DNA of 64,000 bases, from contig CAZCXK010000013.1 in NCBI GenBank assembly GCA_964502605.1, forward strand, positions 703 through 64,702. The letters are read 5' to 3'. Shown here piece after piece: positions 1,315-63,533 of the stretch. Position numbers and translations under genes: made by a program. The stretch is from an uncultured bacterium (lineage in GTDB: Bacteria; Cyanobacteriota; Cyanobacteriia; CAZCXK01). Numbering within the stretch: position 1 is the stretch's first letter; every line of letters begins with the position of its first letter. The notes under the pieces are model-generated. The model did no database searches and had not been told where the DNA came from. It was given only the letters and a program-made list of their open reading frames with translations.

Positions 1315-3045
1315 CTAAGCTAGGGCAAAGTTATCCGCCGTGAAGCCTGCAAGATCGGCAACATCGGTGATGTTTTGCATATTGGCTAGCACATCAATGG
1401 TGCCCCCAGCACCCAGGTTTTCGGAATATACCAGACGCGCAAATCCGAGGTTTTCGTTGAAGTAAACAAACACACCTTCTTCAGCGATGATCTGATTATT
1501 GTTGGCGATCGCCTGGGCTGCGGCTCCTGCATTGGCAAAGGTCTGCCCTTGCAGAATCAGCACGTTGCTGTTGTTTGGAGCTACTTCTATTTCTTCTGCT
1601 ACTTTTTCGATTAGCGCTTCCCTTGGCGCTGCATTTTGGAACAGCAATTCATCAATGCCCAACTCACCGCCCACCAATACATGCTGGTCATCACTGATGG
1701 AATAGTCCGTAATGGTGTCCGTAGCATCGCGGCCATCAGCACCAAAGGCGAAGCGATCGCGCCCAGCACCCCCGGTTAAGAGATTTGTACCTAAGCCTCC
1801 CAATAAGAAGTCATCAGCACTGCCTCCTGCGAGTGTGTCATCTCCGGCTCCACCATTGGCTTCAACTGAAACACCTGCATTGGCCGCATCCAGAGTGTCA
1901 TTCCCATCTCCCCCGTTGAATACGATGAGTGCAATATCGGTGCTGGTGACATCGCTGACCACAAGAGAATCGTCGCCTCCATTGCCGTTGACTTCCATGG
2001 TCTCAGACTCGGTGATGGTCAGAGTCACAGGGCCAGGATTAACCCGGTCGAAAATAGCCTGATTGCCGTTTTGTTCTAAGGTAAATTGCTCACCAGCACC
2101 ACCGCCATTAAAGACGGCTGTGTCAATCCCTTCGCCACCGACCATGATGTCGCTGTCACCGCCAGGATTCCAGATCAGGCGATCGTTGCCTGCACCGCCC
2201 AGCATCGTGTCGTCGCCGCGACCACCATCAATCACATCATCGCCATCGCCTCCTTGCAGTAGGTCGTCGGCATCACCACCTACCAGCGTATCGTTACCGC
2301 TGCCCCCATCGGCTACGATTTGTACGTTGGTTTCAACAGCATCTAGCGTATCGTCCCCCTCGCCTCCGTTAAACACAACCTTCACCACAGATGTATTTGA
2401 CAAATCCTCAACCCGAAACGAATCATTGCCTCCAAATCCATTCAATTCCACTACTTCGGTGCTCTTGATATCAAGGGTGAAAGGGAACGGATCGACCCGG
2501 TCAAATAATGCACGACGTCCCTGCTGCTTGAGGGTAAAGGTCTCATCAATGCCGCCACCATTGGCGACTGCTGTATCCGTACCCGCACCCCCTTGCATGA
2601 TATCGTTGCCATCTCCCTGATTCCAAACCATGCGGTCATCGCCTGCACCGCCTTTCATGGTGTCGTCACCTGTATCCCCAATTAGCAGGTCATCGCCTTG
2701 TCCGCCTTTGAGTACATCATCATCATCCCCACCCCGTATCGTATCGTTACCCGATCCGCCACTGAGCTGATCGGCACCGCTGCCGCCATTAATCCGGTCA
2801 TCTCCAGCGCCGCCAGCAATACGATCATCGCCACTATTGCCATTCAGCTTGTCGTCTCCGTCATTCCCGTTAATGGTGTCATTGCCGCCCTGTCCTCTGA
2901 CGTTATCATCATCGTTGCCTGCCTGAACGATGTCGTCACCACCACGGGCACGGATGCGATCGCTTCCGTCTAATCCGCGTATCAGGTCAGCGTCGAGGGT
3001 GCCAATAAGTTGATTGTCGTTGTTGTCGCCAATAATACGAGCCAT
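1315..3045 (-). CDS. RTX-type calcium-binding (hemolysin-type repeat, beta-roll) secreted protein
   Basis: Many GGxGxDxL/I nonapeptide repeats (GGAGNDRLIW, GGDGDDVIDGGRGDDTMLGG, etc.). The likely true start is ATG at 3045 (MARIIGDNNDNQLIG), preceded by AGGAGA 7 nt upstream. The track ORF extending to 3255 is probably over-extended. Confidence 0.8.
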   Translation of the reverse strand: MARIIGDNNDNQLIGTLDADLIRGLDGSDRIRARGGDDIVQAGNDDDNVRGQGGNDTINGNDGDDKLNGNSGDDRIAGGAGDDRINGGSGADQLSGGSGNDTIRGGDDDDVLKGGQGDDLLIGDTGDDTMKGGAGDDRMVWNQGDGNDIMQGGAGTDTAVANGGGIDETFTLKQQGRRALFDRVDPFPFTLDIKSTEVVELNGFGGNDSFRVEDLSNTSVVKVVFNGGEGDDTLDAVETNVQIVADGGSGNDTLVGGDADDLLQGGDGDDVIDGGRGDDTMLGGAGNDRLIWNPGGDSDIMVGGEGIDTAVFNGGGAGEQFTLEQNGNQAIFDRVNPGPVTLTITESETMEVNGNGGDDSLVVSDVTSTDIALIVFNGGDGNDTLDAANAGVSVEANGGAGDDTLAGGSADDFLLGGLGTNLLTGGAGRDRFAFGADGRDATDTITDYSISDDQHVLVGGELGIDELLFQNAAPREALIEKVAEEIEVAPNNSNVLILQGQTFANAGAAAQAIANNNQIIAEEGVFVYFNENLGFARLVYSENLGAGGTIDVLANMQNITDVADLAGFTADNFALA

Positions 3046-3456
3046 TGGAAGTCTCCTATAGTTACAGTTGTGTATGAGGTTGGTGTGTGTGAGGTTGATT
3101 AAATCAATGTCGGGATTGCCAACGCAGAACTCAGATTGGTTTTGGTTAGAGTGGGCTGATGACAATACCGCGTAAGAAAGAGTGGAACAGACCCACGCAG
3201 CAGCCCATCTCTCATCAGCTACGCTGATCAGATAGAGGTAATGCATACATGGCAAAAGGCTGGTGAATTGGGAATGAGAGCATCGAAAGCATCACGCTTA
3301 GGATGGAGAACCATCAATGGTCATCCCCTAATTGCTGGTCTGTATCTTGTCGTTCTATAAGTGATACAGGGATCAGCCGACATTGGATTTAAATGTCAGA
3401 AAAAAAGTCAGATGAGAGAAAGGCTTGAGGCTCCAACTTGCCATTGGGGTCTTTGA

Positions 3457-3960
3457 CTAGAACCCAACGGATGGGAACAGCAGGCAATCCAGTGTGATAC
3501 CAAACCGCTGTCTCAGAAGCAACCTGCAGTTCATGGGGACTAACAGCATCAAAGAGAGCCAACGCAATCCACTGGTTTTGACAACGTGGCTATCACTCGA
3601 GCGCACCGGGTCGCGGTAGATCCCTCGAGCTGCAATCCGTTTACCCCATCGCCGTTCTATCGTGTCATCGATGCCCGTCACTAGAACTCCATTCGCAACA
3701 AAAACTTTGACCAACTGTTGCAGCAGTAATCGACTTGCCTGACGACTCGACCAGATCGCTCGGCTCAGCACCCGATGATAGTTTTGGAAGTGAGGTTCAT
3801 GCTCCATTCCCAGCGCCCGCAAAATTGCACTGACGGTGCGTTTGCCGGGTGCTACAATAGCACCCAAAAGCAGCACAAGTGCTGATTCCCAAACAGGTTT
3901 AGAAAATAACGGGGCAAACACCACAATCCAAGGGATTAACTCTTTCGGTAGCAAGTTCAT
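3457..3960 (-). pseudogene. IS701/IS4-like DDE transposase, N-terminal fragment (truncated)
   Basis: The N-terminus FSKPVWESALVLLLGAIVAPGKRTVSAILRALGMEHEPHFQNYHRVLSRAIWSS ... GIDDTIERRWGKRIAARGIYRDPVRSS is characteristic of the IS701-like transposase family. The ORF ends at ~167 aa, whereas full-length family members are >350 aa. Confidence 0.55.
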
Positions 3961-4199: not shown

Positions 4200-6254
4200 T
4201 TATGTGTACGGCCTGCTGATGGTGCGATTGATTACTTGGCCCGCTTCTAAGTAGAGCACTTGATCGGCTCGATTGAGCACGGAGGGGCGATGGGAGACAA
4301 CGAGGCAGGTGGGGAGTCGGGTGGATGGGTGGATGGGTGGATGGGCTTCGGCGCGATCGCTCAGCCGAAGGGTGGATGGGTTTTGGGTATCCGGTATCGG
4401 GTGCCGAGTATCAGGTTCTGATTCTGATTTCTCCCTTGCACCTTGCACCTGATACCGTTCACCCTCCATACCTCCCCCACTGCCAAACAACTGCTCCCAG
4501 AGATGCTGTTCAGTCTCCACATCCAGGGCACTGGAGAGGTCGTCGAACACCATCAGGGCGGGACGACGCAGCAGCATGCGGGCGGCAGCAACCCGTTGTT
4601 TTTGGCCGCCGGAGAGGCGCACGCCTCGGGTGCCGATCAGGGTGTCAAGGCCATCGGGCATGGTAGCTAGGTCTTGATCAAAAATGGCAGTGGCGATCGC
4701 CTGATCAATCTGCTCTGAAACAATGGTATCCCCCAGCCCTAGCAGCAGGTTCTCCCGCAGCGAGGCGCTGAAAAGCTGGGGAATTTGGGGTGTATAAGCG
4801 GCCCGAGGAGGCACCAAAAAATTCGCCGGGTCGAGAATCGGTTGACCATTCCAATATAGCGTGCCAGACTGGCTGGGCAGCAGGCCCAAAAGCACCCGCA
4901 GTAGGGTAGTTTTACCCGCGCCCACCCGTCCGGTGATCACCGTCAAACTGCCCTGGGTGAGCGTAAAACTAATGTCCCTGATGCCGCCACCGACTGGATA
5001 GCAGTAGGTCAACCCTTCGACTCGTAGCTCGTGGAGGGGGGCGGGGATGATGGCTCTTCCGGGCGGGTCTTTGACTATCGCACTTACACTCGGTGGCAGC
5101 GCCGATTCTCCGCCAAGAATAGGTTTGAGATAGAGGGGGTGGGGATGGGTGAGAGGGTGGGATGGGTATCGGGTACTGGGTATAAGGTTTACAGTCTGAC
5201 TTACAGGTTGCTGCTTAACGGAAGAAACAGCAGTTTCATCGTTTCCTTCCACCCTTGCACTATGCAACATGCACCTTGTACCTGTTCCCACAAGCCCTGC
5301 CATGCGCTCAAAAGACACTTCACTCTGCCTAGTGATCGCGATGAATCCGCCGAGGAAGGCGAGGAAGTAGGTGACAAAAGATAAGTAATAGACAAACAGG
5401 GCAAAGTCGCCCACGGTGAAGTCGCCTTGGGCACCAAGGCTCTGGGAGGCGACCAGCAAAATGAACCCGGTGCCGATGCTGACGATGTTTTCAAAGCCGG
5501 AGTTGAGGATGGCGCTGAAAACTTGGTCGCGTACCACCTGGTTGCGACGGCGATCGCACCTTCCCCGCAATTCCTCCAGCATTTGGGCTTCTGCCCCGGC
5601 TACTTTGACCGCTTGCACGGCGGTGAACAGTTCGCCAATCAGCCCGGTAACCTGCTGAGTGGCCTGGCGGCTGGCGCGGCGGTAGCGTTTGAGGCGGTGT
5701 TCGGCTTGGTGAGCTAAAAGGGCGATCGCACACAGTGGCAAAAACACCAGCAGCGTCATCGTCGGGTTGACGCTGATCAACAGCGCCACCGAGCCCACCG
5801 CAAACACCCCGGCGGCAAAAATCTCGTTGGTGCCCACCACCACATCCTCAATCTGGGCCGCATCGTCGCGAAAGTAGCTGAGAATTTCGCCGGGGGAGGC
5901 ATTTTGGCCGTCGGCCCCACCCGTTGCCAGTTCGGCGCCAGGACGCTTGAGCAGTTCATGCAGTAGGTTGTGTCGCACCAGACCGCTGATCAAAAAGCGA
6001 TGCTGGGTCTTGGTGATGCGCCCCAAAAAAATTGCCACCACCCGCGCCAGCCCCACTGCCAGCAGTAGCCCAATCCACACCCAGGGTGATGCGCTAAAGC
6101 GCGATTCCCCAGTGAGGGTGTCGAAAAACTCACGAATGAGCAGCCCCGGCACCGCTGGCAGACCCAGAATGAACAGCCACAACAGCGTATCGACCCAGTA
6201 GAGACGCTGAGCGTAGCGAATCAGTTGCCAGAGGAGTTGGGTGATGGAGGGCAT
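4200..6254 (-). CDS. ABC transporter, fused permease/ATP-binding protein (exporter type), carrying two in-frame low-complexity insertions
   Basis: N-terminal 6-TM exporter domain. Walker A GRVGAGKTT, signature LSGGQKQRV, Walker B LMVFDDLSSALD and H-loop VVSHRPS are all present. About 50-60 extra residues sit in the TMD-NBD linker and between the D-loop and H-loop (see findings). Confidence 0.8.
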   Translation of the reverse strand: MPSITQLLWQLIRYAQRLYWVDTLLWLFILGLPAVPGLLIREFFDTLTGESRFSASPWVWIGLLLAVGLARVVAIFLGRITKTQHRFLISGLVRHNLLHELLKRPGAELATGGADGQNASPGEILSYFRDDAAQIEDVVVGTNEIFAAGVFAVGSVALLISVNPTMTLLVFLPLCAIALLAHQAEHRLKRYRRASRQATQQVTGLIGELFTAVQAVKVAGAEAQMLEELRGRCDRRRNQVVRDQVFSAILNSGFENIVSIGTGFILLVASQSLGAQGDFTVGDFALFVYYLSFVTYFLAFLGGFIAITRQSEVSFERMAGLVGTGTRCMLHSARVEGNDETAVSSVKQQPVSQTVNLIPSTRYPSHPLTHPHPLYLKPILGGESALPPSVSAIVKDPPGRAIIPAPLHELRVEGLTYCYPVGGGIRDISFTLTQGSLTVITGRVGAGKTTLLRVLLGLLPSQSGTLYWNGQPILDPANFLVPPRAAYTPQIPQLFSASLRENLLLGLGDTIVSEQIDQAIATAIFDQDLATMPDGLDTLIGTRGVRLSGGQKQRVAAARMLLRRPALMVFDDLSSALDVETEQHLWEQLFGSGGGMEGERYQVQGAREKSESEPDTRHPIPDTQNPSTLRLSDRAEAHPPIHPSTRLPTCLVVSHRPSVLNRADQVLYLEAGQVINRTISRPYT

Positions 6255-6272
6255 AGGGGTAGATGGGGTGGT

Positions 6273-6337
6273 AAGTTTTGAGTTCTAAGTTTTGAGTTCT
6301 AAGTTTTGAGTTCTAAGTTTTGAGTTTCGAGTTCTAG
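6273..6337. repeat. Tandem direct repeat, 14-bp unit (AAGTTTTGAGTTCT) x4-5
   Basis: Read directly: gtaagttttgagttctaagttttgagttctaagttttgagttctaagttttgagtttcgagttctag. It starts about 19 nt upstream of the ABC transporter start codon on the minus strand. Confidence 0.85.
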
Positions 6338-6441
6338 CACCTGATTGACTTGTATGTTGAGACTGTGGAAGGAAACGCAAGCTGTGCCGGAAGAGGAGTC
6401 TGGTTTATGCTGAAAAGTTACCACACCCAACAGTCAGGATA

Positions 6442-6707
6442 ATGGCTCCTACGTCTCGACTCTATGATGCGTTGAACGAATTTCTGCGTCAATGTGAGAT
6501 CCAGTGGCAAGACGTCGGCCACTGAAAACCCCTATGCTGGATGATCATTGGCATTCTCCAAAATCAAACTATTCATCTCTTGGGTGGAGTCATGGCTCTA
6601 ACTACCTTATTTCTGGTCTGCAAGGGGTACAAGTGGTGGCATCGGGTCAACGGTGGCAAATCGATGCCCATTGGAATCGGGGAATGAGTGATCTCAAACT
6701 GGGCTAG
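6442..6707 (+). pseudogene. Degenerate N-terminal remnant of an IS4/IS701-like transposase (frameshifted)
   Basis: ATG at 6442 gives MAPTSRLYDALNEFLRQCEIQWQDVGH, then a stop. A shifted frame (6504..6707) continues with ...DDHWHSPKSNYSSLGW... This resembles transposase N-termini of the MTSLYDTLKPQLTQW type. Weak, recalled from memory. Confidence 0.3.
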
Positions 6708-7079
6708 AACTGGATTCGGCTTGCTATTACTCAGCAGTCAGATATTCAGGTCTATCGGTTTCTTTACTAGTGCTCCAGACCAGCAGCTACCTCTTGCCTG
6801 CAAATGTCAATTCAATAAAGCGTTTCGTCGTGAATTCACCGTTCTCAGTCGCATTCCTGCTTCTTAATTTTGTCAGTCAAGCAGCACTTTCCCCCAAACT
6901 CTTTCGGGGGAAATGTTCCAGGAGAGGCGTTGGCGATCGCTTCCATTTCTTCATCTCGCCCTCTTTCTTCCGCTTTCTATCCCCCGTCTTCTGTCCTTCA
7001 AACCTAGTTGACTAACAAAAAATTCTGCATAGGATGCAGAAACTGCACGCTTACAGTATTTCATCTAATGGAGGGGGCC

Positions 7080-7216
7080 GGCTGGTTGCCTGACAGATCT
7101 TCGGAGTGTGGATTTCGGCTGCGCTCAATCCACGTCATTGTAGATACCTTAGGCAAAGTGCAGTCGAAGCCTACGGTACGGGAGAATCAGCCTTTCACAA
7201 GTTTTGTCAGCCAGCC
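7080..7216. repeat. MITE-like dispersed repeat, copy A (~137 bp). Imperfect terminal inverted repeats (GGCTGGTTGCCTGACAG ... TGTCAGCCAGCC) and an internal hairpin (GTGGATTTCGGCTGCGCTCAATCCAC).
   Basis: Roughly 85-90% identical by eye to a second copy at 39152..39296. Confidence 0.75.
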
Positions 7217-7320
7217 AAAGGAGCAGGTCTCCTGATCCAATGCAGGATATGGGTTGTAAATAGTTTTGTCCGTCAATCAGCCTTCAGACCTTATATGCCC
7301 CAGTGAGCAGATATTTGCTG

Positions 7321-9615
7321 CTATGTTTTAGAGAGTGCAACGGGTCGCACGTCAATATTGCGATCAAACAAAATGCGCGGCGTCAGCAAGATTCTAATCA
7401 AAATCATCAGTGATTGAAACTCACCCGGAGTATGGCGACTTTTCCATTGCCCAGGGCGGCAAAACAGCAGTTTGATCAGGCGGCGCTGGTGTTCAAGGCT
7501 GGCAGCCTCCAGCATGATGCGAACCGTTGGAAACTCGTTGTGAAACCCTGTACGCACTACCTGCCCATGAAAGCATAAGTTTTCTTCTAAGATCTCTAGG
7601 TCAACATTGAGAGGGGTGGCAGCTGAGTCAACGCTGGGGAAGCCCGCTTGAGTTAGCTCAACTTCGACTCCGACCTCCGAAATCATGCGTGTTGTGCCCC
7701 AAAATGTTTGCTGCCCCAGGCTCAGTCGCACCGTTCGGCGCAGATCAAACCATTCATGCACATTAGGACGCGGCACATCAAGCAAGATTAACAGGGCAAT
7801 GCTGAGCATGATCAGGTTATAGGCGCTCCAAATCCAGCCGAGGTCAAAGCCGTGCATCCGTTGTGCCATTTTTGCTGCGGCTTCTGGCGATAACGTAGAC
7901 ATCTCCGCATCATGCACAATCGAGAGGCCAAGGTTAATCCACAGGCTAACGGCAGTTGCAATAAACATAACGACTAGCGGCCAAGCAAGCGACCAGTTGA
8001 AGGAATAGCGATCGCTTGCCGTCCCTTTCGGAGTCACCTTAAACCCTTTACCAAATGGAATCAGCATCGACTGAATAGCTGTCAGCGCTAGTGGGAAGCA
8101 GAGCACCAGCGAATAAATATCAGAAAGCAAGGCCGAGCGCGAGCGATAGTTGAGCCATGCAAAGACGGCCATCTGTACCAAATAGTAGGGCAGAAAGAAA
8201 TACAGCAACTCAGACGGAGATGCCCGCAGAGGAATTGCTTCAAGAAACGAATAGGCCAGCGGCATGAGCAAAAAGCCGACGCGTGAGATGCTGGTAAACC
8301 AGTGCAACAGCCCTTCTAGATAGGCTAGGCGCTGCACCGGGCGCAGTCCTGGAATCGTCAACGGATTCGATTGGATAAAAAACGCTTGCAACGTGCCACG
8401 GGCCCAGCGAATGCGCTGGAGCGCTTGAGAAGAAATATTTTCGGCAGCGAGGCCAGCGCTGAGCTTTTCGTCAAGATAGACTAAACGATAGCCCTCAGCC
8501 GCCAGACGAATCCCGGTAAAGTAGTCTTCACTCAACGATTCGGTAACAAACCCACCTGTCTTTTGCAAGGCGACTCGACGGACAACAAACGATGTGCCTG
8601 AACACACTACACCACCTGCTCCATCGCGCATTGGCTGAATCTGGCGATAAAACACTTCCTCCTCTGAGGTGAGCACATCTTCTAAGCCAAGGTTACGGGC
8701 AATTGGGTCAGGATTGTAGAAGCTTTGGGGTGTTTGAATCAGCCCTACGAGATCATCTTGAAAGAAGCCTACTGTGCGAGTGAGAAAGTTGGTAGTTGGT
8801 ACAAAGTCAGCGTCAAATATCGCAATCAGTTCACCAGTTGTGAGAGCGATCGCATTGTTGAGGTTCCCAGCTTTGGCATGGCGGTTATCCGATCGGGTGA
8901 TATATTCACAGCCCAACTCGTCCGCCAGTTGCTTAATCTCTGGGCGGCGTGTGTCATCGAGAAGATAGATGCGTTTGTTGGCATAGTCGAGCGCCTGACA
9001 CCCAATCACCGTTCGTCGCAAAATAAATGCGGGCTCATCATAGGTTGGAATCAGCACATCAACCCAAGGAACATAGGCTCCTGAGACAACATCTTGAGCC
9101 AAAATATCTGCTTCTGGGCGGCGATCGCGCACATTGAGCATCAGAAAAAGCTGGATGCAACTGTTCCCCAAAATCAGCAGCTCTAGCAAAAACAGAACCA
9201 GACTAAAGACCCCATTTAATGGAGTGCTTAGATTGAGAGTAGAGAGCGATCGCCAGACGAGATAACGCCCCAACAGCACTGACAAGATGCCGATGACAAT
9301 AAAGCGCGACCATTGGCGAGGCTGAGGTGAAACCCGCATCACGACGAAGACAATCAGCAGCAAAATTACAGTCGGAAACAGCAAATATTCCATGGCCACG
9401 CGGGGCACTTCCAGCCACAGCGGCGGGTTGGCCTGAGACATATCAAACGTGGAGAAAATGGCTGTGATTTGCCCCTGACCTGCAAACCAGGCTGCCACAA
9501 TTGTGGCAGCGAAACAAATCGACCCTAGCATCACAAGCGTTGCACCATGAGGCCGCCAGATTTTGTGTCGTCTCTGTCGATAGCTGAGTTCGTCTTGTGT
9601 CTGCGAAGGTGTCAT
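7321..9615 (-). CDS. Cellulose synthase-like family-2 glycosyltransferase (BcsA/CesA-type) with C-terminal PilZ domain
   Basis: GT2 motifs DDTRRP...DAD...TPQSFYN and QRIRWARG (QxxRW). Multiple TM helices. C-terminal RRTVRL...(PilZ RxxxR) plus a D/NxSxxG-like segment. Confidence 0.75.
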   Translation of the reverse strand: MTPSQTQDELSYRQRRHKIWRPHGATLVMLGSICFAATIVAAWFAGQGQITAIFSTFDMSQANPPLWLEVPRVAMEYLLFPTVILLLIVFVVMRVSPQPRQWSRFIVIGILSVLLGRYLVWRSLSTLNLSTPLNGVFSLVLFLLELLILGNSCIQLFLMLNVRDRRPEADILAQDVVSGAYVPWVDVLIPTYDEPAFILRRTVIGCQALDYANKRIYLLDDTRRPEIKQLADELGCEYITRSDNRHAKAGNLNNAIALTTGELIAIFDADFVPTTNFLTRTVGFFQDDLVGLIQTPQSFYNPDPIARNLGLEDVLTSEEEVFYRQIQPMRDGAGGVVCSGTSFVVRRVALQKTGGFVTESLSEDYFTGIRLAAEGYRLVYLDEKLSAGLAAENISSQALQRIRWARGTLQAFFIQSNPLTIPGLRPVQRLAYLEGLLHWFTSISRVGFLLMPLAYSFLEAIPLRASPSELLYFFLPYYLVQMAVFAWLNYRSRSALLSDIYSLVLCFPLALTAIQSMLIPFGKGFKVTPKGTASDRYSFNWSLAWPLVVMFIATAVSLWINLGLSIVHDAEMSTLSPEAAAKMAQRMHGFDLGWIWSAYNLIMLSIALLILLDVPRPNVHEWFDLRRTVRLSLGQQTFWGTTRMISEVGVEVELTQAGFPSVDSAATPLNVDLEILEENLCFHGQVVRTGFHNEFPTVRIMLEAASLEHQRRLIKLLFCRPGQWKSRHTPGEFQSLMILIRILLTPRILFDRNIDVRPVALSKT

Positions 9616-19657: not shown

Positions 19658-20578
<921 letters not shown>

Positions 20579-62308: not shown

Positions 62309-62643
62309 CTAACCGAGTTCCATGCCACAACGGGGTTACGTTCGGTCGCTACAGGCGACAGCATGAACCAACCGGATGGTTAACACCGAGATCAGCGACT
62401 GACCATCCAGCTAGAACACAGAGCTTGAGCGCAGAGATCAAATACAAAGTTTGGGCGATCGCCTCTCAAGCCAGTCCTGCTGGATTTGGCAGGTCAATGC
62501 TGAATAGAATCGCGGAAACTAAGCGTTAAATTGGGTTCTGCGGTATTGCTTTCGACCAGTTTATACCCAGGGTTGTCTCGATCTTATCGCGGTCTGTGCC
62601 GGATTCTGTGAGCGGCCTATTCAAATTTGTGGAGTTATAGGTA

Positions 62644-62731
62644 AAGTTTACAGCGGCTTTAGAGAAAGTTTACAGCGGCTTTAGAGTTAGTGATGACATT
62701 AAAGCGGTGATATAAAGCGGTGACATAAATT
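62644..62731. repeat. Cluster of direct repeats: 22-bp unit AAAGTTTACAGCGGCTTTAGAG x2 in tandem, then GTGAYATAAA-type motifs x3
   Basis: Read directly from the sequence. It lies between the parA-like stop (62928) and the ppx start (62308). Confidence 0.8.
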
Positions 62732-62927
62732 GGCGCAATCGTTGCTACGCACGGGCAAGGCGATCGCTAGGTGGCTGATGCAGTCAATTGATCAGGCATG
62801 TGGCATCAGGCATGTGGCACTAGGCACTCTTAGTCAAATCATTTCATCGACAAACCGTCGGATCGGGGTCAATTTGGCAACTATCACAGGGGCTCGGGCA
62901 TCGGCCCATGTCCCAACTGAGGCGAGG

Positions 62928-63533
62928 TCAAACACGCGTCAAATGGGTCAGCAGTTCTGCTCCCACCTGCTGATAATCTTGCCATGCCTGCTCTGCCTTG
63001 GGATCTTTGACCAAATACACGGGAATGCCGCCACGCGCAGCTTTCTGAAAGGCGGCAAAGCGGCGGACGCCCGCTGACAACACGGGCAAGTTGGCCTCCT
63101 GCAACATCGTTCTCACCTGCTCTCCACTGCGGCTTGGGTGCGGAGGAATAATCGTCAGCACGATGCGATAGCGAGTTGCCCCTACAGACTGGAGATATTC
63201 CAGCGTCAGGGCGAGGGCATCTAAGGCCAAAATATCTGGCGTCGTTGGCAGCACCAGCAGGTCGCAGCTATCAGTCAGGATCGCCAGTTCATTGGGCATG
63301 GGGCGAGCCTGCGTGTCAATGACAACGTGATGATAGCGGCGATTGCGCGCGGGCTGCCACTCATCCACCATTTCAAACGGCAGTTCTCCACGCTGGGCCC
63401 ATGCGGTGGCAGAGCGGTTGGGATCAGCATCAATCAGCAGCGTTGCGGCCTGGGTTTGCAAATAGGCCGCCAGATGAATTGCTGTCGTTGTTTTGCCGAC
63501 GCCGCCTTTAAAACTGGCGATGGTGATAATCAT
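62928..63533 (-). CDS. ParA/MinD-family P-loop ATPase (small orphan ParA-like)
   Basis: Deviant Walker A with signature lysine FKGGVGKTTTAIHLA; DADPNRSAT; ~200 aa. No ParB-like ORF is adjacent. Confidence 0.7.
   Translation of the reverse strand: MIITIASFKGGVGKTTTAIHLAAYLQTQAATLLIDADPNRSATAWAQRGELPFEMVDEWQPARNRRYHHVVIDTQARPMPNELAILTDSCDLLVLPTTPDILALDALALTLEYLQSVGATRYRIVLTIIPPHPSRSGEQVRTMLQEANLPVLSAGVRRFAAFQKAARGGIPVYLVKDPKAEQAWQDYQQVGAELLTHLTRV

Follow-up and report, generated by a model that had tools for sequence, protein, structure and literature searches.

A gene for an ATP-binding cassette (ABC) exporter half-transporter (4200..6254, minus strand) on contig CAZCXK010000013.1 of an uncultured cyanobacterium, analyzed here within a stretch of 64,000 nt (the window), contains two long in-frame segments of repetitive DNA: copy A (4314..4484), inside the nucleotide-binding domain (NBD), and copy B (5160..5300), in the linker between the transmembrane domain (TMD) and the NBD. 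Our analysis indicates that these segments are probably translated, disordered loop expansions of a functional exporter, derived from inverted arrays of G-rich 7-8-nt units. A first-pass annotation had described them as a dispersed repeat lying in frame and tolerated as loops. That observation is real, with one stretch misassigned, and the reading is right in kind; it is wrong in the history of the inserts and in the class of element. Loci and proteins of other genomes are cited below by their L and P numbers.

Position and repeat anatomy of the inserts

The open reading frame (ORF) is uninterrupted through both segments, as previously annotated, and encodes 684 aa. Pfam assigns PF00664 (ABC_membrane, E = 6e-18) to residues 38-294 and PF00005 (ABC_tran, E = 1e-23) to residues 426-572, with the H-loop strand at 648-656. 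All catalytic motifs are present in the translation, namely Walker A, signature, Walker B, D-loop and H-loop (GRVGAGKTT, LSGGQKQR, LMVFDD, SALD, SHR). The product belongs to the ABCB-like exporter half-transporters of the type IV fold; the closest structures in PDB are ABCB1/Pgp and YheI, and the closest protein match is from Leptolyngbya sp. FACHB-60 (82%).

In an alignment of 34 homologues of 587-759 aa (alignment A2), length variation is concentrated at exactly two sites. The first is the TMD-NBD linker, between FERM...G and the motif HPLTHPHPLYLKP, where residues 319-365 of the window protein correspond to positions 5160-5300. The second lies between the post-D-loop helix ETEQxLWxxLF (ETEQHLWEQLF in the window) and the H-loop strand PTCLVVSHR, and residues 591-647 correspond here to positions 4314-4484. 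The loop at this second site has about 59 residues in the window protein vs about 8 in solved ABC NBDs, in agreement with the earlier remark that copy A sits between the Walker B/D-loop and the H-loop and that an insertion at this place is highly unusual.

On the coding (minus) strand copy A is an imperfect long hairpin, with a G-rich arm of GGTATCA/GGTGCAA heptamers, a loop, and a C-rich arm of CCCGATA heptamers followed by CCCATCCA octamers. The full order of units is GGTATCA-GGTGCAA-GGTGCAA-GGG, the loop GAGAAATCAGAATCAGAA, then CCTGATA-CTCGGCA-CCCGATA-CCGGATA-CCCAAAA-(CCCATCCA)n. The corresponding RNA folds with -75.7 kcal/mol (z = -3.9), pairing end to end over 4311-4477. Read on the plus strand, the insert contains a perfect array of the octamer GGGTGGAT (x3.4, 4319..4345, Tandem Repeats Finder (TRF)), whose fourth unit resumes at 4370-4381 and which forms a template-strand (G3N5)x4 G-quadruplex (G4) motif. 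It is followed by heptamer units of the GGGTATC type (GGGNATC class; 4385..4409), translated on the coding strand as PDTRHPIPDT, and by a CCTTGCA heptamer array (x2.4, 4434..4450, TRF), which reads GGTGCAA on the coding strand and yields the peptide VQGAR.

Copy B, also on the minus strand, is a decayed heptamer hairpin with the units GGTACAA/GGTGCAT, a loop, and the units ACCCAGT/ACCCGAT (fold z = -1.3), and its left boundary is common to the linker insert of L001. The constant downstream boundary of the linker insert is formed by HPLTHPHPLYLKP, encoded at 5121..5159 (minus strand) by C-rich, array-like DNA and corresponding to nearly invariant columns of A2. Since HPLTHPHPLYLKP hardly varies within the clade, it represents ancestral coding sequence outside the insert. 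The earlier assignment to copy B thus holds for the variable insert at 5160-5300, but not for the GGGTGG(G)ATGGGT units at 5136-5167, which largely code for HPLTHPHPLYLKP. The DNA encoding this motif may itself serve as a site where arrays land or are seeded, or it could be an old array that has become part of the protein.

When a G-rich 7-8-nt tandem array is defined by at least two head-to-tail units with a G3 tract, the two segments contain the GGGTGGAT array (x3.4), the CCTTGCA array (x2.4) and GGGTATC units both at 4385-4409 and at 5164-5181. The common array units are free of stop codons whichever of the six frames is read, and their translations are exactly the peptide motifs of the orthologue inserts (IHPSTHPP/GWMGGWVD, VQGARCK, DTRYPIP, GRVGEWES, KPQTLNP, KTQNSKL). 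The inserts are probably tolerated because the units are stop-free in six frames and because peptides such as HPSTHPPI, VQGARCK, DTRYPIP and GRVGEWES are low-complexity coil.

The two segments had been described as related, and this is correct for short modules. In particular, GGGTGGATGGGT, GGGTATCSGGTAYYGGGT and CCCTTGCACYWTGCA occur in the 64-kb window only at 4319-4409/4433-4447 and 5164-5181/5252-5266, in the same order and orientation, with 0.1-0.6 matches expected from shuffles of the window. A gapped alignment of A and B gives 72% column identity, yet the true match is limited to these short modules and overall similarity is weak. The 12-mers of copy A match the repeat arrays of relatives 361 times vs about 31 times for shuffles. 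Those of copy B stay at the background level apart from the orthologous site in L001, which identifies copy B as decayed.

Orthologues, selection and predicted structure

In orthologues from the same clade, inserts are found at the same two positions, with 25-67 aa at the linker and 5-74 aa at the NBD site, vs 5-19 aa and 8-20 aa, respectively, in the outgroups (Synechocystis, PCC 7335, Pantanalinema and Chroococcidiopsis in A2, together with Nostocales and Paenibacillus loci). As judged from these alignments, the inserts are lineage-specific additions, and the distant orthologues of Synechocystis, Nostocales and Paenibacillus are short-looped. The first-pass annotation had expected lineage-specific segments and would have given up its reading had orthologues carried them as conserved linker sequence; the sites are indeed filled in the orthologues, but their content is hypervariable and not a conserved linker.

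At the linker site the repeat types comprise GGTGCAA in the window, GGTGCAA/ACCGTAA heptamers in L001, GAGTTTT/CTCAAAA in L002, L004 and L093, and GGGAGAGT or GGGTGGAT with CCCATCCA in L005, L092 and L094; the layout of G-arm, loop and C-arm is common to all of them. At the NBD site L001, L002 and L004 have a solo CCCATCCA array only; in the window there is in addition a hairpin, homologous at the DNA level to those of L089, L090, L091 and L092 (GGTATCAGGTRCAAGG...GATACCCGGCAC). Clade orthologues have inserts at both sites, and the NBD-site hairpin is shared by descent with L089-L092; the insertions therefore predate the window genome, and the earlier proposal that one element landed twice in this coding sequence (CDS) is not supported. 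Sister sequences in a neighbour-joining tree of conserved columns differ in insert lengths at the same positions (52|17 vs 44|45, and 39|14 vs 43|41), which means that the sites are old and their content is fast-changing. The frame is kept across both sites in all 16 clade orthologues read at the DNA level.

In relatives, the paralogous partner exporter shows a third occupied site, with a heptamer hairpin lying in frame in the beta1-beta2 turn of the partner's NBD (L001 2-1084, array at 359-403; L015 343-2274, array at 1482-1565).

The ratio of nonsynonymous to synonymous substitution rates (dN/dS), calculated against four orthologues, is 0.06-0.08 in the TMD, 0.09-0.17 in the NBD before the insert and 0.06-0.26 in the 30 codons past it, and in the alignable codons of the inserts it varies from 0.4 to 2.9, being about 1. 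Hence strong purifying selection acts on the core domains to either side of the inserts, and the inserts drift neutrally. The annotation had left it open whether the protein tolerates the inserts or the gene is an early-stage pseudogene. The pseudogene reading is not supported, since dN/dS is low on both sides of the inserts (0.06-0.26), the catalytic motifs are intact, and the 16 orthologues are in frame.

An AlphaFold model built with the A2 alignment has low overall confidence (predicted local distance difference test score, pLDDT, 64.7); residues 321-402 and 594-644 are predicted as coil with pLDDT below 50, and the helix 579-590 and the strand 649-653 flanking the NBD-site insert are predicted confidently. 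Both inserts are thus predicted as unstructured loops.

Relatives of the arrays and a nested mini-element

Composite hairpin arrays of the same units are found in intergenic DNA flanking the clade loci, with fold z-scores from -1.9 to -6.9. One of them lies directly after a stop codon (L001 5960-6095), others are in leaders (L001 9862-9998; L002 9940-9998) or between genes (L002 9263-9360 and 16262-16400; L005 5262-5360), and the sequence CCCGATACCCAAAACCC is common to the L001 intergenic array and the NBD-site inserts. A scan of 1.15 Mb from 78 cyanobacterial loci yielded 49 arrays, of which 25 are intergenic, many as G-arm/C-arm pairs, and 24 lie within ORFs. Among the latter, 23 are in this ABC gene and one in its paralogue, with none in about 200 neighbouring genes. 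The earlier label of a dispersed repeat, MITE- or SDR-like (miniature inverted-repeat transposable element; small dispersed repeat), is accordingly apt in that the arrays belong to a mostly intergenic class in relatives, but not in the sense of a discrete MITE.

Within the window, array copies are limited to the exporter gene and its leader. The start-codon and leader region (6239..6333, minus strand) contains a template-strand G4 motif (6239-6268) and a real tandem repeat, already annotated, of the unit TAAGTTTTGAGTTC (x3.9, 6272-6326, TRF), which is of the CTCAAAAC type on the coding strand. Leaders of orthologues have arrays of varying types directly before the ATG. The unit TAAGTTTTGAGTTC is of the GAGTTTT/CTCAAAA type, also seen in the linker inserts of L002, L004 and L093 and in the leaders of L093 and L095.

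The count of further copies, suggested as a check of the original reading, gave no other copy of the element in the 64-kb window or in plasmids; more generally, no near-identical or fixed-length second copy was found in the window, in plasmids (blastn of copy A) or in 1.6 Mb of related loci. The 16-mer GGTATCAGGTGCAAGG has five matches in viral contigs, which is about the chance level. A synthetic array-encoded peptide used as a protein query retrieved a single 86-aa ORF, low-complexity queries being uninformative with HMMER under its database-size penalties.

G-rich heptamer repeats of the GGGNATC class are known from Xanthomonas and Nostoc; there most of them lie between genes, inverted pairs in convergent orientation are frequent, and ORFs are depleted of them (PMC4692102). 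Typically they are located on the antisense strand just upstream of ORFs, and they form G4 in vitro (Rehm et al., PMC4692102). A survey of repeats in Leptolyngbya-like genomes was limited to units of 1-6 nt (PMC8619395).

A regular-expression search for (G3N1-7)x4, which identifies sequence motifs only, found four G4 motifs in the 64 kb, three of them on the template (plus) strand of the exporter gene: at the start codon (6239-6268), at the linker (5135-5180) and at the NBD site (4311-4345). The linker motif spans the HPLTHPHPLYLKP-coding DNA and positions 5160-5180. Among 14 clade orthologues, template-strand motifs are present at the linker in all, at the NBD site in 11 and at the start in eight; none of six distant orthologues has any, and sense-strand motifs are rare.

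The octamer array of copy A is itself interrupted by a hairpin mini-element (4343..4372, minus strand) that reads TTCGGCTGAGCGATCGCGCCGAAG on the coding strand at 4346-4369, is flanked by CCC on both sides and contains a highly iterated palindrome (HIP1) site. The element adds 27 nt (peptide LRLSDRAEA) and splits the array; deleting these 27 nt leaves a perfect four-unit array. It is the sole such hairpin among the 113 HIP1 sites of the window, where it has one copy, and LRLSDRAEA is missing from P0002, the closest orthologue.

About seven copies of the mini-element were seen, with the termini TTCGGC...GCCGAA(G), a left flank that is always CACC(C/G) and an added length that is a multiple of 3. 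A 24-nt form with two nucleotide differences is located in a linker-site array of L114 (6607-6630), and a 51-nt form, consisting of the 24-nt form with 27 internal nucleotides and adding 54 nt, occurs in linker-site arrays of L096 (7034-7084) and L129 (1477-1525) and in an intergenic array of L114 (4050-4100); a variant is at L114 3125-3148. Moreover, the exact 24-mer of L114 recurs at L172 1489-1512, inside a glycosyltransferase family 2 (GT2) gene, in frame (peptide VRLSAHAEA) and in a loop absent from most GT2 homologues. No isogenic empty site was found for the mini-element; P0002 lacks the 9-aa segment, and the GT2 homologues lack its loop. The exact 25-mer of the nested hairpin has no match in metagenome contigs.

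With a length within 21-27 nt, a terminal inverted repeat, several unrelated sites and nesting in repeats, the mini-element resembles the SDRs of Nostocaceae and may be regarded as a candidate SDR-like element, putatively mobile. According to the literature (Elhai et al. 2008 via PMC5861425, PMC3116915), SDRs share with it the length of 21-27 nt, the terminal inverted repeat, the nested position, the association with HIP1 and the occurrence in several contexts; it differs from them, as they are characterized there, in sequence and in its presence in Leptolyngbya/Nodosilinea-type DNA. SDR-like repeats outside Nostocaceae were not found according to PMC5861425. If its assignment is true, the 24-nt element would give the first example beyond this family of a very small mobile element of the SDR type, with a size guaranteeing that the frame is never broken.

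Two other matches were not counted as copies. A viral match to the HIP1 version of the core (L173) is a chance one, lying within a high-GC ParB-like gene without the termini of the element, and ALREAAIAS, a HIP1-like 9-aa segment at a similar place in the octamer array of P0016/L089, also lacks these termini.

Origin of the inserts, related systems and the exporter locus

In the scenario that we propose, the array class (GGGTGGAT, GGTGCAA, GGGTATC and their kin) normally resides in intergenic DNA, gene 3' ends and leaders of Nodosilinea/Leptolyngbya-type cyanobacteria. In an ancestor of the clade, arrays would have invaded two surface loops able to accommodate them, namely the TMD-NBD linker and the stretch from the post-D-loop helix to the H-loop strand. 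Later they would have grown and shrunk, lost parts, decayed or given way to other repeat types, with selection purging only the frame-breaking variants. Arrays may have entered and been exchanged by slippage or template switching at hairpins, by recombination with genomic arrays or by transposition, and conserved C-rich coding motifs possibly served as landing or seeding sites. The latest event would be the insertion of the 24-nt hairpin with a 3-nt flanking repeat (27 nt) into the copy A octamer array of the window genome.

It is possible, if rather doubtful, that all these features belong together, the arrays being self-perpetuating landing pads that are seeded by C-rich motifs (HPLTHPHP; P-S-T-H-P-P), retained as G4/hairpin elements and in turn targeted by the frame-neutral mini-element. 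Once seeded in the exporter pair, arrays would then undergo exchange with the pool of arrays elsewhere in the genome, and they would persist on the template strand at the linker, the NBD loop and the start codon.

Several observations weigh against an origin by tolerated array insertion. The array class is not seen in the other 62 kb of the window, and its dispersal is documented in relatives and not in the source genome. The large arrays come without transposition machinery, a clear target duplication or an empty-site allele, and the in-gene hairpins are often no better than shuffles (z from +1.1 to -2.6). Since all 24 in-ORF arrays are confined to this ABC gene or its paralogue, the exporter stands out as a host in a way that neutral tolerance alone does not account for. 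The persistence of G4 motifs at the linker (14/14) and the NBD site (11/14) makes selection at the DNA or RNA level possible. The scenario does not account for the confinement of arrays within ORFs, and of G4 motifs on the template strand, to the exporter family, nor for the frame-neutral 24-nt mini-element.

According to the main rival, the arrays or their C-rich arms are held by selection on DNA or RNA structure, template-strand G4s or mRNA hairpins tuning the expression of an exporter that in relatives is surrounded by iron-uptake genes, and the peptides being a by-product. Besides the position of three of the four G4 motifs of the window, their recurrence across the clade and absence from the distant orthologues, and the restriction of in-ORF arrays, it could appeal to the antisense, G4-forming repeats upstream of ORFs described elsewhere (PMC4692102). 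We nevertheless consider it unlikely: the linker motif overlaps a conserved peptide with C-rich codons anyway, the persistence of positions may reflect descent, with arrays drawing in further arrays, and both sequence and length turn over freely, P0028, P0019 and P0011 being nearly without an NBD-site array. We favour descent, in which coding motifs that resemble arrays would seed new ones or serve as their landing pads. It is still less likely that the loops are selected protein features, such as disordered His/Pro-rich regions with a metal-binding or regulatory role in an iron-related exporter. The recurrence of HP-rich peptides (HPPIHPST), the conservation of HPLTHPHPLYLKP, the location of orthologues amid TonB receptor, FhuD-like, Fur and Feo genes and the inserts of the partner paralogue would fit such a role, but the dN/dS of the inserts is about 1, unrelated peptides (LKTQNSK, GRVGEWES, KPQTLNP) interchange at the same site, loop lengths range from about 5 to 74 aa, and the composition mirrors the DNA repeat units.

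The original proposal, in which one MITE-like element landed twice recently and the gene either tolerates it or starts to decay, is very improbable. It accounts for the motif order common to both segments, and the hairpin of copy A, the adjoining fragment of an insertion sequence (IS) and the loss of the iron-uptake neighbours agree with it. Against this, both sites are occupied in clade orthologues with copy A homologous across them, dN/dS around the inserts is far below 1, near-identical copies are lacking in the window, plasmids and fetched loci, and copy B ends, on its octamer side, in DNA that encodes a conserved part of the protein. Phase variation, with slippage of 7-8-nt units toggling the reading frame, is scarcely credible: the perfect GGGTGGAT x3.4 array inside the CDS has a unit length that is not a multiple of 3, and repeats in genes are a classic phase-variation device as mentioned in PMC4692102, but none of 16 clade orthologues is out of frame, the arrays are short and mostly imperfect, and it is not obvious why a free-living cyanobacterium would need such a switch.

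An intein, a sequencing artefact and a gene fusion were rejected, as splicing motifs are absent, numerous independent assemblies show the same architecture, and the two flanks form part of a single NBD.

Among known systems, the arrays are close to the GGGNATC simple sequence repeats (SSRs) of Xanthomonas and Nostoc (Rehm et al. 2015, PMC4692102), with which they share tandem 7-nt units containing a G3 tract (GGGTATC fits exactly), variable copy number, G4 potential at the level of sequence motifs and, in relatives, convergent inverted pairs able to form stem-loops and a mostly intergenic location near ORF ends. In contrast to those SSRs, which are under-represented in ORFs (PMC4692102), the arrays described here also lie within a CDS and are probably translated. 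Another difference is that 8-nt units and several unit types are mixed here in composite hairpins, in a Nodosilinea/Leptolyngbya-like lineage. The classical cyanobacterial heptamers known as short tandemly repeated repetitive (STRR) sequences, reportedly described by Mazel and coworkers in 1990, are related.

In-frame palindromic elements within protein-coding genes are known from Rickettsia (PMC10969869). These Rickettsia palindromic elements (RPEs; PMC10969869) likewise place hairpin DNA in frame in unrelated functional genes, where the surface peptide is tolerated and purifying selection is kept. Each RPE family is discrete, about 100-150 bp long and conserved in both sequence and peptide, whereas the inserts described here are hypervariable, are assembled from short tandem units and return at the same two loops within a single gene family, in a different phylum. 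The likeness is one of function (intact ORF, dN/dS of 0.06-0.26, predicted disordered loops) with no sequence relationship, the RPE consensus sequences not having been compared. By analogy, the combination can be described as RPE-like in-frame palindromes built from GGGNATC/STRR-like arrays.

MITEs, such as cyanobacterial Nezha (PMC10969869), are similar to the arrays in being small, non-coding, hairpin-like and dispersed in relatives. Unlike MITEs, the arrays have no clear target-site duplication, and no near-identical copies or parent IS were found; their arms are tandem-unit arrays and not defined terminal inverted repeats, and a direct repeat flanks neither insert. The transposase fragment of the DDE_5 family next to the exporter has no sequence link to the inserts.

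A disordered insertion tolerated in a surface loop of an ABC NBD also has an analogue in CFTR. The regulatory insertion of CFTR NBD1 is conserved, phosphoregulated and not repeat-derived, and its site is the beta1-beta2 turn, the same place as the array of the partner exporter in L001 and L015. The window insert differs in occupying another loop, between the post-D-loop helix and the H-loop strand.

The exporter would thus be a bacterial case, outside Rickettsia, of repeat DNA translated into new loops, with the clade recording gain, swap, decay and loss. It also maps two exporter sites that tolerate 25-74 extra residues, to which the partner subunit adds the beta1-beta2 turn, and these may be useful for tags and insertions. 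For annotators, His/Pro-rich or Gly/Arg-rich stretches in Leptolyngbya-type proteins may represent translated intergenic-type repeats and not domains or pseudogene scars. The 24-nt element and the template-strand G4 motifs offer testable leads on the spread of tiny repeats and on gene regulation.

The exporter locus in the window is rearranged, in line with the suspicion of the first-pass annotation, and this rearrangement is unrelated to the origin of the inserts. The IS remnant noticed earlier is real and adjoins the 3' end of the exporter gene (3457..3960, minus strand); it is a truncated DDE_5 transposase (PF13546, E = 7.6e-19, profile positions 14-135 of 272). The neighbours of the exporter (1315-3960, 6255-9615) are an RTX-repeat protein and the DDE_5 fragment on one side and a cellulose-synthase-like GT2 gene on the other; about 1 kb of non-coding DNA beside the exporter has no Rfam match. 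In relatives the exporter gene is found amid genes for TonB-dependent receptors, FhuD-like binding proteins, DUF1636, AraC regulators, Fur and FeoAB, and in distant species it occupies the second position in a tandem pair of ABC genes. A tblastn search of the window for remnants of the usual upstream neighbours (DUF1636, FhuD-like, TonB receptor) gave none. No Rfam families were detected in the window, and promoter and terminator scans gave background.

The window also contains hetR (19676-20578, Peptidase_S48 and HetR_C), and with its 113 HIP1 sites in 64 kb and 51% GC it is consistent with a filamentous Leptolyngbya/Nodosilinea-type cyanobacterium. Metagenome contigs with close orthologues (L106, L114, L157) break within the NBD-coding part (residues 442-481), not at the arrays, and these ends could be assembly breaks at strain variation. 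Unrelated tandem repeats (22-mer x2, 13-mer x2.7, 14-mer x2.1) are located in intergenic DNA at 62643-62826, upstream of the ORF 62928..63533 (minus strand).

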